A DNA stretch of 64,000 nt, taken from NCBI GenBank assembly GCA_964016885.1, contig OZ024749.1, forward strand, positions 45,198,001-45,262,000. Direction: 5' to 3'. The translations under genes were made by a program, and so were the position numbers. Numbering within the stretch: position 1 is the stretch's first letter; the number at the start of each line of letters is the position of its first letter. The notes beneath the pieces are model-generated. The model did no database searches. It saw nothing but the letters and a program-made list of their open reading frames with translations, and was not told the DNA's origin. This document shows, in pieces, positions 3,905-62,166 of the stretch. Source of the stretch: Eledone cirrhosa (lineage: Eukaryota).

Positions 3905-4124
3905 ATATTTATTAAAATAACAGATTAAAGTTTAAGCAAAGAATCGCTGCTTTCACCCTTAACGGGATCTTCAGAAGATCCCGTTAAAGGTGAAAGCAGC
4001 GATTCTTTGCTTAAACTTTAATCTGTTATTTTAATAAATATTTGCTCTACGGTTCTTATATATTTGATATATATTTATCCTTATCGAGCCCTCTTTGGAT
4101 TTTAGTCTTCAAATTTATTATTAT

Positions 4125-4127
<3 letters not shown>
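3905..4127. mobile_element. Family F fold-back (68-bp arms, apex 3973) plus 3' tail
   Basis: Palindrome centred on GATCTTC-A-GAAGATC; same sequence at 17.9, 18.4, 33.1, 36.1, 51.5, 54.0 and 58.7 kb; TA flanks. Confidence 0.85.
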
Positions 4128-16988: not shown

Positions 16989-17073
<85 letters not shown>

Positions 17074-17524
17074 CTCGTACGTATATTTGACTGTTATGGC
17101 GTATAATTTTTACATATTCTGGTATTTAGGGTTTGGCTATGTGTATACGGGAGTTTTGCGTCCGCGTGAGTATGCAGGTTCGTACGTATGGTGGGTGTGT
17201 GTATATGTGTACTTCTTGTTTTAGTTGACTTACGTCTCCGAACATTCATGTATTTATTTGTAGGTATGTGTGTGCGCTTGTTATATACGTATTTATTTAC
17301 TTATATACGTTTATATAATTATTTATTTATTTGTACACAAGCATACACACACACACATATTTATATGTGCATGGTTTTGTATACCTATGGTAAGGTTTTG
17401 CGTATGCTTGTGTATGTACGTATCTGTTTGCGTGTATGTATTTATTTGTTTCTATTACTTCTGTATTGTATTTATTTACTTTGTTCTTATCTCTGTAGCG
17501 GAGATTCATTTGGTCTCCTAGTTA

Positions 17525-17942
17525 GGATTTTAGTCTACAACTTCTGCTATACCATTTACGTGGTTTTGTCTTTGCTTGCTATTGTTCTCCACGCTCCACA
17601 TATGACTTATTATATTCGTTTTTTCGTTCATTGCCAGAGAACGTCTCTATGCACCACCTAAGAGAACATTAGTCTACGACCTCTTTTATACCATAAACGT
17701 GGTTCTGTCTTTGCGCGTAATTGTTTCTCACCGCTCCTATTAATGACGTATTATTCGTTTTTTCCCGTTCTTTGCCAGGGAACGTTACCACGAACCAAAG
17801 TATCGTCTTCCTGTCTTCCTCCGGTTGCAACGTTTTTTGAAATATCCAGTTCTGCGTTTACAGATTGACTTTGTTAGTTTCAGAAGATCCCGTTAAGGGT
17901 GAAAGCAGCGATTCTTTGCTTAAACTTTAATCTGTTATTTTA

Positions 17943-17950
<8 letters not shown>
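17525..17950 (+). mobile_element. Longest family F copy, with internal 139-bp diverged tandem duplication
   Basis: Near identical to 51078-51615; repeat units start 17530 and 17669; ends AATAAA(TA)n. Confidence 0.85.
17860..17935 (+). ncRNA. Extended type I hammerhead fold with variant core CAGAAGA (family F)
   Basis: ACAGAUUGA-cuuuguu-AGUUU CAGAAGA U-CCC-GUUAA-GGG-U GAA AGCA..UGCU U AAACU-UUAAUCUGU. Confidence 0.75.
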
Positions 17951-22984: not shown

Positions 22985-24535
22985 ACACATCACACACACA
23001 CACATCACTCACATACATATACAGCATCACTCACACACATACACATCATTCACATACATATACAGCATCACTCACACACATACACATCACTCACATACTT
23101 ATACAGCATCACTCACACACATACACATCACTCACATACATATACAGCATCACTCACACACATACACATCACTCACATACATATACAGCATCACTCACAC
23201 ACATACACATCACTCACATACATATACATCATCACTCACACACATACACATCACTCATATACATATACAGCATCACTCACACACATACACATCACTCACA
23301 TATATATACAGCATCACTCACACACATACACATCACTCACATACATATACAGCATCACTCACACACATACACATCACTCACATACATATACAGCATCACT
23401 CACACACATACACATCACTCACATACATATACAGCATCACTCACACACATACACATCATTCACATACATATACAGCATCACTCACACACATACACATCAC
23501 TCACATACATATACAGCATCACTCACACACATACACATCACTCACATACATATACATCATCACTCACACACATACACATCACTCATATACATATACAGCA
23601 TCACTCACACACATACACATCACTCACACACATACACATCACTCACATACATATACAGCATCACTCACACACATACACATCATTCACATACATATACAGC
23701 ATCACTCACACACATACACATCACTCACATACATATACAGCATCACTCACACACATACACATCACTCACACACATACACATCACTCACATACATATACAG
23801 CATCACTCACACACATACACATCATTCACATACATATACAGCATCACTCACACACATACACATCACTCATATACATATACAGCATCACTCACACACATAC
23901 ACATCACTCACATACATATACAGCATCACTCACACACATACACATCACTCACATACATATACAGCATCACTCACACACATACACATCATTCACATACATA
24001 TACAGCATCACTCACACACATACACATAACTCACATACATATACAGCATCACTCACACACATACACATCACTCACATACATATACATCATCACTCACACA
24101 CATACACATCACTCATATACATATACAGCATCACTCACACACATACACATCACTCACACACATACACATCACTCACATACATATACATCATCACTCACAC
24201 ACATACACATCACTCATATACATATACAGCATCACTCACACACATACACATCACTCACACACATACACATCACTCACATACATATACATCATCACTCACA
24301 CACATACACATCACTCACATACATATACAGCATCACTCACATACATATACAGCATCACTCACACACATACACATCACTCACATACATATACAGCATCACT
24401 CACACACATACACATCACTCACATACATATACAGCATCACTCACACACATACACATCACTCACATACATATACAGCATCACTCACACACATACACATCAC
24501 TCACATACATATACAGCATCACTCACACACATACA
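22985..24535. repeat. 41-bp minisatellite made of 19- and 22-bp subunits
   Basis: CATCACTCACACACATACA + CATCACTCACATACATATACAG over ~1.55 kb. Confidence 0.95.
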
Positions 24536-25106
24536 CAAAACACACATGCATATCATCACTCACTCACATTCACAATTTCACTCACACATATACACAACAC
24601 TCACATACATATAGAGCATCATTCACACATATACACAACATCACTCACACATATATGTAACACACTTACGCATACACAATACATATTCACATTCATACAC
24701 AAGCATAAAACACACTGACATTTGTACAGCAGACATACACATGCACAATACACACACATACACAACACACTCATGTGCAAGCAGAACGCACATGCTCACG
24801 CATGCACAAGCCACACACACAACTACACTCACACATGCTCAACACACGCATATCCTGGCGTTTTGCTTGTACCTTCCCCAAAACAACCATCACACCCACC
24901 CCACTGTGTTGCCGTCTTCCGGCCACAAACTCCTCACCCCGTGACCCTGCTGGTGCGCTTTTCAGGCAGACCAGTCGCACCGCGATTCCATATTACAACA
25001 GTCACCCCACCACAACTCCCCAAACAACCACCCTTCTCCCTCTCTATTTCTGCTCTTTCCTCCACTGAATGTGTGTACAGACACAGACACAGACACACAC
25101 ACACAT

Positions 25107-33047: not shown

Positions 33048-33051
<4 letters not shown>

Positions 33052-33270
33052 ATAACAATAAATTTGAAGACTAAAATCCAAAGAGGGCTCGATAAGGATA
33101 AATATATATCAAATATATAAGAACCGTAGAGCAAATATTTAATAAAATAACAGATTAAAGTTTAAGTAAAGACTGGCTGCTTTCACCCTTAACGAGTTTC
33201 AGAAGATACCATTAAGGGTGAAAGCAGCGATTCTTTGCTTAAACTTTAATCTGTTATTTTAATAAATATA
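33048..33270. mobile_element. Family F fold-back; plus-strand HHR fold from 33195
   Basis: AGTTT CAGAAGA at 33195-33206 directly after the inversion junction. Confidence 0.85.
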
Positions 33271-47723: not shown

Positions 47724-49310
<1,587 letters not shown>

Positions 49311-49386
49311 ATATATATATAGAGAGAGATATGTATATATATATATATACATATATGTATGTGTATATATATAGAGAGAGATATGC

Positions 49387-49490
<104 letters not shown>

Positions 49491-50549
49491 ATATATATAT
49501 ATGTATATATTCAAACACGTGTGTGTGTGTATGTAATTTCTCTATGTATGATTATGTGTGTGCTTGCGTGTATGTGTGAGAGTATGTATGCCTAGCATAG
49601 TGAAGTGAAACGAATGGGGAATGAAACGCAGTTGACAAAGGGATGTATGCTATTGTTGGTACTAAGAAATGGAAGGTTATCTCATGCTGTTTTATTAACA
49701 ATGAATTTGTTCATTCTGTTTGTAGTGTTGTTTGGTGGAACCAGTGGTGGGTAGTGTCTAGCTTTTTATTATGTCTTACATGTAAATACATACTCACTTA
49801 CATACTATATATATATATATAAATAAATGTGTGTATGTGTTTGTGTATATATGTATTTATGTATATATATATATATAAATATAAACATATTCTTTTATTC
49901 TTTTATTTATTTGACTCAGCCATTGAACTGCTGTCCTGCTTGAGCGTAGAACTCAGGTGTTTAGTCGATAGTATCGATTGCAGTTTGTATTTCATCAATC
50001 ATTATTTGTCGAAGCGCTATGTTACGGTGATATAAATATATACAACGCAGGAGTTTGGGACGGTAAACATAAAAACAATGGCATTCAGTCACACACAATC
50101 ACACACACACACAAGCACACAAACACTAACACACTGATAGAGAGCGGGGCATGTATATATATATATATATATACATAAGTATATGTAGCACATATTCAGT
50201 ATATAATTCACATACACTTTGTTTTTCTTTTATATGTTGGCTTCAAATTTTGACCAGTACATAAGGCGCATGCTAGTTTTTGCCAACCTGTTGCAACTTC
50301 ATTTAATACTACATTAAAACAAAAAAATCACGGATGAAATAATCTTAACAAATGGCAATATAGTCCAGGAAAATTCTGGGAATCATAAATATACCAATTT
50401 GATTTTAACTCTTTGAAATGATTGAAACATATAACTAATACTTTGAAATGATCACTCCTTGATTGCCCGATGATAGATGCAACATCTGATGGAGATTAGG
50501 GTTACAACTGTCGGACAGAGAAATTTGCATACATGTTTCGTTCTCGTCA

Positions 50550-50752: not shown

Positions 50753-50819
50753 TTTTATTATGCGCATTTCAAAAACAAACATCATCAAACAATAATATTT
50801 GTGTTTTCATCAGATAAAA
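50753..50819 (-). ncRNA. Minimal type I hammerhead (family L, left arm)
   Basis: Exact inverse of 50953-51019. Confidence 0.87.
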
Positions 50820-50952
50820 CAGGAGAACATGATATGAAGGCTAAAAAAACACTTGTTGATAGTGCAGTTTTAAATCAACATATCCATGATATGTTGATTT
50901 AAAACTGCACTATCAACAAGTGTTTTTTTAGCCTTCATATCATGTTCTCCTG

Positions 50953-51019
50953 TTTTATCTGATGAAAACACAAATATTATTGTTTGATGATGTTTGTTTT
51001 TGAAATGCGCATAATAAAA
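50953..51019 (+). ncRNA. Minimal type I hammerhead (family L)
   Basis: UUUUAU CUGAUGA AAAC-ACAAAUAUUAUU-GUUU-GAUGAUGUUUGU-UUUU GAA AUGCGCAU A AUAAAA. Confidence 0.87.
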
Positions 51020-51077
51020 TATATTGAACTCCTTTAACCATCTTTTGATCTTATATTATATATATATATATATATAT

Positions 51078-51609
51078 ACGTGGTTTTGTCTTTGCGTGCT
51101 ATTGTTCTCCACGCTCCACATATGACTTATTATCTTCGTTTTTTCGTTCATTGCCAGAGAACGTCTCTATGCACCACCTAAGAGAACATTAGTCTACGAC
51201 CTCTTTTATACCATAAACGAGGTTCTGTCTTTGCGCGTAATTCTTTTTCACCGCTCCTATTAATTGTTTCTACTTTAGGCACAAGGCCAGCAATTACCCA
51301 GTGCATTACTGGTACTTTATTTTATCGACCCCGTAAGGATGAAAGGCAAAGTCAACCTCGGCGGGATTTGAACTCAGATCGTAAAGGGACGTAACTACGC
51401 TCCTATTAATGACGTATTATTCGTTTTTTCCCGTTCTTTGCCAGCGAACGTTACCACGAACCTAAGTATCGTCTTCCTGTCTTCCTCCGGTTGCAACGTT
51501 TTTTGAAATATCCAGTTCTGCGTTTACAGATTGACTTTGTTAGTTTCAGAAGATCCCGTTAAGGGTGAAAGCAGCGATTCTTTGCTTAAACTTTAATCTG
51601 TTATTTTAA

Positions 51610-51615
<6 letters not shown>
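51078..51615 (+). mobile_element. Family F copy (HHR fold 51526-51601) interrupted by a SINE
   Basis: Colinear with 17558-17950; CAGAAGA at 51547. Confidence 0.87.
51265..51397 (-). mobile_element. 5'-truncated S1 SINE nested in family F, 13-bp TSD
   Basis: CGCTCCTATTAAT at 51252-51264 and 51398-51410; single copy at empty site 17732-17744. Confidence 0.95.
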
Positions 51616-52189: not shown

Positions 52190-52191
<2 letters not shown>

Positions 52192-52630
52192 CCGCCTCTT
52201 CATTGTTGTTGTGGAGTCTGTGCTGCTGTACGGGTCTGAGACTTGGACACTGACCAAGAAACTCACTCACATGGTGGATGGGTGTTACACCAGAATGCTG
52301 AGGATGGCTCTGAACATTAATCAGTATACACTGAGGATGAACAATTCAGAGCTGTATGGGAGCCTCCCAAAAGTGAGCTCAAAAGTGATACAGAGGAGAG
52401 TGAGGTTAGCTGGACATGCTCACCGACATCCAGAGTTGACATTGCACTCAGTGCTCCTGTGGGAGCCCCTACATGGACACATTGGAAGAGGAAGACCAAG
52501 GTTAACGTATGTTGATGCCCTAAGGACAGACACTGGTCTGTTGGAGACGCAGGACATGGTAGCGATAATGAGGGACAGAGACCGCTGGAGAGAACTCGTC
52601 CATGGATCTCGGGAATTTTACCCGCCCTAG
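52190..52630 (+). mobile_element. RTE-type (RTE-X-like) LINE 3' end, open frame
   Basis: ESVLLYGSETWTLT..DGCYTRMLRMAL..LAGH..RHPE..GRP motifs; joined to (TA)n. Confidence 0.88.
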
Positions 52631-53951: not shown

Positions 53952-53958
<7 letters not shown>

Positions 53959-54122
53959 TAAAATAACAGATTAAAGTTTAAGCAAAGAATCGCTGCTTTC
54001 ACCCTTAACGGGATCTTCTGAAACAAACAAAGTCAATATTTGCTCTACGGTTCTTATATATTTGATATATATTTATCCTTATCGAGCCCTCTTTGGATTT
54101 TAGTCTTCAAATTTATTATTAT

Positions 54123-57849: not shown

Positions 57850-59400
57850 TGAAGAAACGAAGTGAGGTATTTTGCACCACAATAATCCAAGACATAAATG
57901 TAAAACTCCAGGCACGTATAAGCCTGTATATATTCATGATGGGATACATACACATCACGTGGAAATGTAATGCCATCTCCCTATTCTGGAGAAAATATTA
58001 TTGCATTGACGCATTGGCTGTTTCGGCTATGTACATTGATGGGAAAAGCATTGGTAACCGATAGCGCTACGAGAAATTCCGCAAAATTTCACACAGCTGA
58101 ACGTCAGTATTTTAGGACAAAATTTAGAAAACATCAATCCACGTTTCATATAACAATTCCTGTTTTGCATATAGACAGCCATCGTCAATATCAACGGAGA
58201 GTTTATCAGCGTCCAGTAGCACGTAAATAAACAATTCATTGAATGTGCAAATACCATTTCTGACAATTCCCCGAAGCGACCTTCGGAAACACTTGACCTC
58301 TTCGTTCTCAAACTATTTTGACCCAATAATGCTAATCTATTACTTCTTTTCCCGTTCATACCCATCTAAAACAACAAAAATCTCATCTTTAAAATGACCC
58401 TGTAGCATTCCTTCTTACAAATATTTTTCTAGATCTCAGTCTTGCATCATACCACGAGAATATGAATGTCAGAACTAGTAGCATTAGTTGTACAATTATA
58501 GTAAGAGTAAGGACATGTTTGGTAACAGTTGAAGAGCTTATAAGTATGTATGTAAGAACGACGGTATATATATATATAGTAATAATAGTAATAATAATAA
58601 ATTTGAAGACTAAAATCCAAAGAGCGCACGATAAGGATAAATATATATCAAATATATAAGAACCGTAGAGCAAATATTTATTAAAATAACAGATTAAAGT
58701 TTAAGCAAAGAATCGCTGCTTTCACCCTTAACGGGATCTTCATAACAGATTAAAGTTTAAGCAAAGAATCGCTGCTTTCACCCTTAACGGAATCTTCAGA
58801 AGATCCTATTTTTCAATTAATCACTAAATATCTTGCTCTAAGTTCCTTGGATATTTTCAGGGAGAATGAGCATGTTGTAAATGTGCAATTCCTTAGTGAG
58901 TTTCCCTTAATTTTCCTTTTTGCCAACTTTATTCATAAAGGTTTCATCAACCCTACCCAAGATTCTACTCACAGAACACCATGTTTACAAAATGGACCTC
59001 TTAACCGTTCAAATATCTCTGCAGCTTCAATGACAGCGCCTTGGAAGAGTTATTAGATATGTTCATTAGAGTTATTAACGTAGTCCTCCTACTCTGTATG
59101 TTCTGAATGCAAGCCACTACATGATTTAATATTCCTCACGTGCATTCGGACAAGATAATGTATTAGTCTATGAAAGAGGATTAAGGAAATTAAGAGAGAT
59201 TCAGATGGTATGCCACACAATGTATATTCGGTTTACTTTTTACATATGACTTCAATGATTTGAGCTCGGACGCTGTGTCCAAGGCATGTCAGCCATCGCC
59301 ATTACCTTGCAGATAAGATCTGTCGGCAAGCTCGGCCGATTTCAGCTTGTGACATCCCCAAGCTTGTGAAAGGCATGTTACTGTGAACAACAATTACTTG
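57850..59400 (+). pseudogene. Possible heavily decayed hAT-related transposase
   Basis: Ordered peptide scraps FHTAE, FANFIHK..PCLQNGP, HPQACERHV recall the PCHTQAVER class of transposases (from memory); many stops and frameshifts. Confidence 0.3.
58578..58806 (-). mobile_element. Family F copy with tandem duplication of the ribozyme segment
   Basis: ATAACAG..ATCTTC twice (58686-58741, 58742-58797) then the TTC-A-GAA turn. Confidence 0.85.
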
Positions 59401-61939: not shown

Positions 61940-62166
61940 AGTTTTATTATAGATGAGATTCTACAGGAATAGAACTGTTTCATTCATTAGAAATCATCAG
62001 GAAGTTTCCTGATGATTTCATTAGAAATCATCAGGAGTTTCCTGATGATTTCTAATGAATGAAACAGTTCTAGTCCTGTAGAATCTCATCTATATTAAAA
62101 CTGTTATACTCTGCTATGTATTGAGTACCTTACTTACTGTGGTTACCTCCGATTCAACCCGGAATA
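61940..62166. mobile_element. Family G fold-back with two hammerheads (61955-62003 minus, 62035-62087 plus)
   Basis: GAGUUUC CUGAUGA U-UUC-UAAU-GAA-U GAA ACAG-UUCUAGUC-CUGU A GAAUCUC; four CTGATGA copies around the apex. Confidence 0.87.

Follow-up and report, generated by a model that had tools for sequence, protein, structure and literature searches.

Hammerhead ribozymes in the terminal repeats (pLTRs) of Penelope-like retrotransposons are already known (PMC4209133). For the elements described by Cervera and De la Pena in 2014 (PMC4209133) and for Poseidon PAc (Frangieh et al. 2024, PMC11167929), low or protein-assisted activity is reported. For cleavage, the hammerhead studied in PMC11167929 required the element's protein, and insertion in vitro was not blocked when its core was mutated. 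Members of the Hydra clade are marked by RWK-like, DKT, CxCX5C, CxxC and CxH protein motifs, and all 25 published Hydra families have a CUGA core with U4, of which 14 carry U.U at the 10.1-11.1 pair and nine carry U17 (PMC8557442, File S2). Among mutants of the CUGA turn, all single and double changes except the C3-G8 swap are reported to have low activity (PMC9901934). A viroid U4C variant that is weak in vitro was enough for infection in vivo, and U10.1-U11.1 was tolerated (PMC3088659).

The motif described here was found in a window of 64,000 nt from Eledone cirrhosa (GCA_964016885.1, contig OZ024749.1, positions 45,198,001 to 45,262,000), and copies were searched in the 3.0 Gb genome. Its pLTR location is shared with the elements of PMC4209133 and PMC11167929, as are tandem and inverted copies, an optional tail and an intron upstream. 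The core variant in these two reports is a U3-A8 swap, whereas the change here is U4A; their minimal hammerheads without stem III are thought to act as dimers, while a full stem III is present here. As in the Hydra-clade families of Craig et al. 2021 (PMC8557442), the motif is of type I, on the sense strand and within the pLTR, close to the 3' end; the U.U pair and U17 that are common there, the protein motifs and the insertion into (TA)n are also alike. It differs from them in A4 (0 of 25 there), in a very high copy number, in a G15.2-C16.2 pair in place of C-G (a feature also of family C, described below) and in longer stems I and III. Hydra-1_Obim (PMC8557442) is a different family with a CUGAAGA core. 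A change at position 4 (the viroid U4C) and U10.1-U11.1 are tolerated with reduced activity in Perreault et al. 2011 (PMC3088659), but the variants there are rare single loci, and U4A is not named in the available part of that report, whereas the change here is fixed in a long-lived lineage. No report of a natural U4A hammerhead was found in the literature searched, a scope outside of which lay figures, supplementary variant lists and most subscription papers.

The fold and its host element

The following features, all on the + strand, define the motif and its surroundings. The cut position was placed by hammerhead numbering.

17070..17947, +: 3' terminal repeat (pLTR) truncated at its 5' end, between (TA)n tracts, beginning inside the pLTR intron
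17770..17778, +: 3' splice acceptor of the pLTR intron (pyrimidine tract and CAG); exon 2 runs from 17779, 102 nt before C3
17860..17935, +: type I hammerhead-like fold, assigned by sequence, by the same place and layout in U4 relatives and by its conservation pattern
17860-17868/17927-17935 (9 bp) and 17876-17880/17922-17926 (5 bp), +: stem I
17869-17875, +: 7-nt bulge of stem I
17881..17887, +: core strand C3 A4 G5 A6 A7 G8 A9, with A4 at 17882
17889-17891/17897-17899, +: stem II, CCC/GGG, adjoining the U10.1.U11.1 pair
17888, 17900 and 17901-17904, +: U10.1, U11.1 and GAAA
17904-17907/17917-17920, +: stem III, AGCA/UGCU
17919..17922, +: predicted cleavage triplet CUU (17919-17921), with the cut expected between 17921 and 17922

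All pairs of a type I hammerhead are present at 17860-17935, in a three-way junction with an open end at stem I (5+9 bp) and with a stem III of 4 bp and a 9-nt loop. The core consensus C3 U4 G5 A6 N7 G8 A9...G12 A13 A14 A15.1...U16.1 H17 is matched at every position except U4, which is A. The 10.1-11.1 pair, usually G-C, is the tolerated U.U. The letters of the 7-nt stem I bulge and of loop II, a candidate tertiary contact, differ among subfamilies. The initial annotation had proposed this three-stem fold, and its stems, bulge and CUU were all recovered as described when the letters and the fold were checked. The emphasis that it placed on the CUU site did not hold up: such a site is ordinary, occurring with a CUGAAGA core in family C and, as U17, in 9 of the 25 published Hydra families.

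The hammerhead fold has a predicted energy of -12.3 kcal/mol and differs from the minimum free energy structure of -15.1 kcal/mol (ViennaRNA). Compared with shuffled sequences, the stability was not unusual (z of -0.70 and -0.63). No hammerhead model was among the five Rfam matches to 17780-17945 at E<=10, and across the whole window the 150 matches listed of 436 comprised only microsatellite and hairpin look-alikes. The case for a hammerhead therefore rests on homology and conservation and not on energy. The motif at 17860-17935 is a true homolog of the type I hammerhead.

The carrier of the motif, placed by protein motifs and layout, is an autonomous Penelope-like element of the Hydra clade. 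The annotation had recognised a multicopy fold, which is confirmed, but not that this fold is the terminal-repeat hammerhead of such an element. The pLTR copy at 17070..17947 ends in AATAAA (17942-17947) and is 94-98% identical to five genomic copies over all 875 nt tested; these copies run upstream into the end of a GIY-YIG ORF. The motif lies about 940 nt past the stop codon, with a T-rich stretch in between, and in tandem units the ATG follows 198 nt after C3. Many copies hold open frames of 713 codons, a single ORF encoding a reverse transcriptase followed by a C-terminal GIY-YIG domain, with YRDD and NIVY...YIG. The protein carries RWR, DKT, CNCRNRADC (CxCX5C), CDLC (CxxC) and CKH (CxH). 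The pLTRs formed by partial tandems, the inverted 5' copies, the optional tail and the (TA)n targets are all present. A canonical hammerhead is absent from the pLTR, its homolog with the U4A core sitting at the expected place. An initial assignment to the Nematis clade gave way to the Hydra clade after comparison with clade descriptions and protein motifs. No Pfam family matched the element protein. Its closest protein homolog, P0001, is 56% identical; when the element's own genome was searched with P0001, no closer sister was found among the 71 scored matches, which included matches at the identity of the U4A family itself. No relative of the element protein was detected in viral contigs. At least 46,712 3' ends of the element are present in the genome.

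Position 4 in relatives and across the genome

Relatives of the element were examined for the state of their core. A strict scan of 77 metagenome loci of relatives (about 40% protein identity) recovered 25 with a type I hammerhead on the sense strand; each of these 25 scored hammerheads has U4, and 15 have U.U at 10.1-11.1. A looser scan yielded more hammerheads among the matches listed and no CAGA core. In the same genome, other families with canonical cores of the U.U type gave 43,043 matches (control, 415), with A4 in none of the first 100 listed. Family C, an element of the same clade with 39% protein identity, combines CUGAAGA with G15.2-C16.2 and CUU. As U.U, CUU and G15.2-C16.2 thus recur in relatives with canonical cores, U4A is the one special departure. 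It is also uncommon outside this genome, as seen in samples of viral contigs (see below). Further hammerhead families of the same clade with canonical cores were noticed at loci L218 and L214, besides family C itself (L199-L211), whose stem III is minimal and palindromic. An abundant canonical family of the U.U type (L212-L217; G000:C1:9968445-9972138 and 5541126-5543719) is arranged in tandem, in arrays of about 420-500 nt, and comprises two subfamilies differing in stem I; it looks like a retrozyme or pLTR array.

Within the U4A family, a 32-mer with N at position 4 had 15,113 exact genomic matches (reversed-pattern control, 0), and position 4 was A in 14,981 of them. The remaining 132 were mixed, with 40 G, 36 T and 24 C among the 100 listed. 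With stem II left free, only 148 U4 matches were found genome-wide, scattered and forming no U4 subfamily. The fixed CAGAAGA core that the annotation had reported from the window thus extends across the genome, where CUGAAGA is far from being the majority state. An independent DNA run had no variant at 2% or above at 17882; runs X4-X6, one contig each at 98-99% identity, carry no evolutionary evidence.

Copies of different age were compared next to each other. Young copies were chosen by their ORF end, a middle-aged subfamily by upstream letters (3,488 matches, 73 copies read) and ancient copies by the 3' flank alone (207 matches, 90 read). Mean divergence from the column majority of each group was 1.3%, 4% and 11-13%, respectively, and decayed ORF remnants of ancient copies were mostly 60-83% identical to the young protein. 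A4 was present in 44 of 44 young and 72 of 72 middle-aged copies, and in 34 of the 36 ancient copies that keep the stem I arm, the other two having G and none U. A4 is the master state, fixed since the oldest visible subfamilies. An earlier impression that the oldest copies carry U4 came from matches selected for U4 and was dropped: with position 4 free, the first 100 of 557 matches had 95 A, 4 T and 1 C, and the five T among 52 ancient copies spanning the site all lacked the stem I arm (fold-backs or truncations). Three loci (L258, L260 and L261) share U4, a disrupted stem II and further diagnostic changes and may be a small side branch.

All six CAGAAGA sites listed for the window (3972, 17881, 33200, 51547, 54014 on the - strand and 58797) are where they had been placed, and only two, 17881 and 51547, belong to complete motifs. 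The copies other than that at 17881 are the following.

3908..4127, +: fold-back insertion with two 3' ends tail-to-tail and its centre at position 4 (3973)
33049..33266 (left end approximate), +: fold-back insertion with its core at 33200 and a damaged stem II
51074..51613, +: second complete copy, core at 51547, with a short interspersed repeat breaking it at about 51265-51397
53954..54037, -: copy truncated at its 5' end, with a mismatch in stem I and the core at 54020-54014
58674..58806: fold-back fragments with core letters at 58797 (+) and 58793 (-)

The fold-back at 3908..4127 has a 90-nt tail on its + arm and lacks the stem I 5' arm. Its opposite strand was said to regenerate CUGAAGA; the letters are present, but no hammerhead is rebuilt, because the sequence upstream of the reverse-strand CUGAAGA pairs with the stem I 3' arm over only 2 bp. 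At 58674..58806 the + arm stops right behind the core and has neither the stem I 5' arm nor GAAA. The repeat inside the second complete copy (51265-51397) is a common one, flanked by about 13 nt of duplicated target. Other repeats were noticed in the window. Two canonical CUGAUGA hammerheads on opposite strands of a long, near-perfect inverted repeat at 1874-2227 represent another Penelope-type fold-back, and further inverted repeats with CTGATGA on both strands lie at 50807-50965 and 61994-62048. A 41-bp tandem repeat of 40.6 copies with strong strand skew spans 22990-24644, and open frames at 48152-49510 (-) and 52190-52627 (+) resemble, by eye, fragments of non-LTR retrotransposon reverse transcriptases.

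Conservation of the fold and splicing of the terminal repeat

Five subfamilies were compared column by column. With zones drawn from the hammerhead model after some copies had been seen, and with seven search-anchor columns excluded, the majority letter of these subfamilies, which are related to each other and not independent, changed in 1 of 47 columns that are core or paired, compared with 11 of 23 that belong to the bulge, the loops or N7 (Fisher p = 6e-6). The sole core or paired change is C to U at a CpG, and a U.G pair is retained. The difference persisted without the T-rich, slippage-prone bulge (1/47 versus 7/15, p = 9e-5) and for the unpaired core alone (0/12 versus 11/23, p = 0.005). 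Changes between subfamilies affected 4 of 8 bulge and 3 of 5 loop II columns, and N7, the only core position at which hammerheads are free to vary, is U in eight of nine copies of one ancient subfamily. This distribution argues that the fold was kept after A4 arose. Selection on A4 itself is not demonstrated by it, as a single column has about even odds of staying put at the loop rate. Paired columns are near-invariant over the five subfamilies; no compensatory pair was seen at this level, and among ancient copies there was at most one double change per pair.

These comparisons bear on the reading of the motif as a dead relic that hitch-hikes on a successful transposon, either unconstrained or constrained as DNA only, such as a promoter or endonuclease site. 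The whole 3' end is rather conserved, and the tail (5 of 40 columns changed) does not differ significantly from the core and paired columns of the motif (1 of 47; p = 0.09), which such a reading would accommodate, as it would a stability no better than that of shuffles and the lack of covariation. However, the UTR upstream has changes in 48 of 131 columns, and within the same 76 nt changes hit the loops, the bulge and N7 while avoiding the stems and core, so that a relic appears highly improbable. The annotation had left a choice between an active variant and an attenuated or dead ribozyme. Active versus attenuated is the right question, whereas the third possibility is disfavoured by the subfamily pattern.

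The pLTR intron is visible in DNA contigs as a GT..AG joint that skips 749 nt (L079:6014-6762). Among the first 100 of 516 pattern matches, 58 were retrocopies with donor and acceptor joined, which extrapolates to about 300 genome-wide. Such spliced retrocopies indicate that transcripts of the element are, or once were, made and spliced, whereas retention is the usual description for Penelope introns. Exon 2 contains the entire motif, and 13 of the 14 spliced loci that were read hold it complete with A4. The terminal repeat also has an internal duplication of about 140 nt (17530-17785) with halves that are 79% identical and a candidate acceptor in each; the upstream acceptor is used by no listed retrocopy.

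The presence of a real intron raises the question whether A4 is kept for splicing, with C3-A4-G5 serving as the used 3' splice acceptor (UUUCAG). The context is that of a textbook acceptor, and helix I is a known end point of Penelope introns (PMC4209133). Yet in the first 100 of the 516 matches, all taken with the main donor, the 58 joints lie 102 nt upstream and none uses either AG within the motif, which leaves this explanation with hardly any credibility.

Insertion ends, predicted core pairing and predicted cleavage

Insertion ends were used as a record of whether templates had been cut. Of 100 insertions listed, 97 cross the predicted cut site and one ends at it. None of 37 copies that include the ORF start begins at the cut, and 18 reach upstream through the core. 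Among 90 ancient insertion ends, 61 fall inside the 71 fold columns (36 in the core and stem II) versus 8 in the 71 columns upstream. Six of the 90 lie in the five columns near the cut, where 4.3 are expected from 61 ends over 71 columns. A pile-up of ends at the cut had been considered, as two fragments in the window start at 17922, and was rejected on these larger samples without excess. The insertions that run across the cut site indicate that templates are mostly uncut. Mostly uncut templates are also reported for a canonical Penelope hammerhead (PMC11167929), and such read-through does not decide activity, since Penelope elements whose cores are canonical should show it as well. It was also observed that 5' truncations and fold-back junctions cluster in the fold (L339-L428; 3908-4127, 33049-33266 and 58674-58806), and that two cDNAs whose priming began at opposite DNA ends could be joined through a TTC-N-GAA near-palindrome that surrounds position 4.

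The missing excess of ends at the cut would suit a fold that does not cleave but persists as a structural signal, such as a binding or folding site for the reverse transcriptase or endonuclease beside the poly(A) signal and tail. The conservation pattern fits this reading equally, Naiad elements thrive without canonical hammerheads, and in viral contigs a full hammerhead was found in 0 of 120 A4-pattern matches versus 65 of 125 U4 matches among those listed. In addition, CUGA-turn mutants are reported to be rescued by no second change other than the C3-G8 swap (PMC9901934). Against it stands the behaviour of the core, in which the catalytic G8 and G12 as well as C3 and U16.1-U17 stayed fixed and N7 varied, as in a core that cleaves; changes of U4 can, moreover, leave usable activity (PMC3088659). 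A purely structural role is possible but, on balance, unlikely.

ViennaRNA predicts that A4 takes part in a second structure.

17878..17904, +: predicted alternative helix UUUCA (17878-17882)/UGAAA (17900-17904), which joins the core strands via A4:U11.1

The basis of this prediction is secondary-structure energies plus a single natural U4 copy: the pairing probability of C3 with G12 is 0.40 in the 76-mer and, in a 55-mer, 0.64 with A4 versus 0.06 in that U4 copy. The helix has a probability of 0 in four canonical families of the same genome. Proximal stem I has a predicted probability of about 0.05 with or without A4.

It was considered whether the motif may be a fully active variant in which long stems I and III and a contact between the bulge and loop II offset the loss of U4. 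Its stems I (5+9 bp) and III (4 bp, 9-nt loop) are longer than in most relatives, where stem III is minimal and palindromic, the motif is strongly conserved, and tertiary contacts have been proposed to offset core changes (PMC3088659). The proposed contact, however, would involve bulge and loop II columns that vary among subfamilies (4/8 and 3/5), CUGA mutants have low activity in a tertiary-stabilised hammerhead (PMC9901934), and the predicted helix would compete with the core. Full activity is therefore judged improbable.

The predicted core-blocking helix, together with the published mutants of the CUGA turn and the U4C variant, favours an attenuated ribozyme. We hold with moderate confidence that the motif is of this kind, with cleavage predicted and the fold still under selection. 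A4 would remove the uridine-turn contact and would pair with U11.1 in the helix that joins both core strands, leaving most transcripts uncut. Such uncut RNA would retain its 3' end and tail, from which the element copies. Slow or protein-assisted cutting at CUU|17922 may still take place, and such residual cutting is the proposed reason for the retention of G8, G12 and the cleavage triplet. A stronger version, in which A4 is a selected switch whose pairing with U11.1 locks the core strands and holds the hammerhead off until the element's protein refolds it, is doubtful; if true, a natural U4A hammerhead lineage would have been kept as such a switch over the family's whole visible history, with more than 46,000 3' ends.

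For Penelope-like hammerheads in general, activity in vitro is low or protein-assisted, insertion in one system was not blocked by core mutants, and a sister clade lacks them. The element described here amounts to a natural experiment, in which one core base found important by mutagenesis was lost long ago, the remaining core was kept and the element reached tens of thousands of copies alongside families of the same clade with canonical cores in the same genome. Its probably slowed-down ribozyme could show whether cutting is required by such elements. If the U4A motif cleaves, the core consensus used by ribozyme searches would widen.
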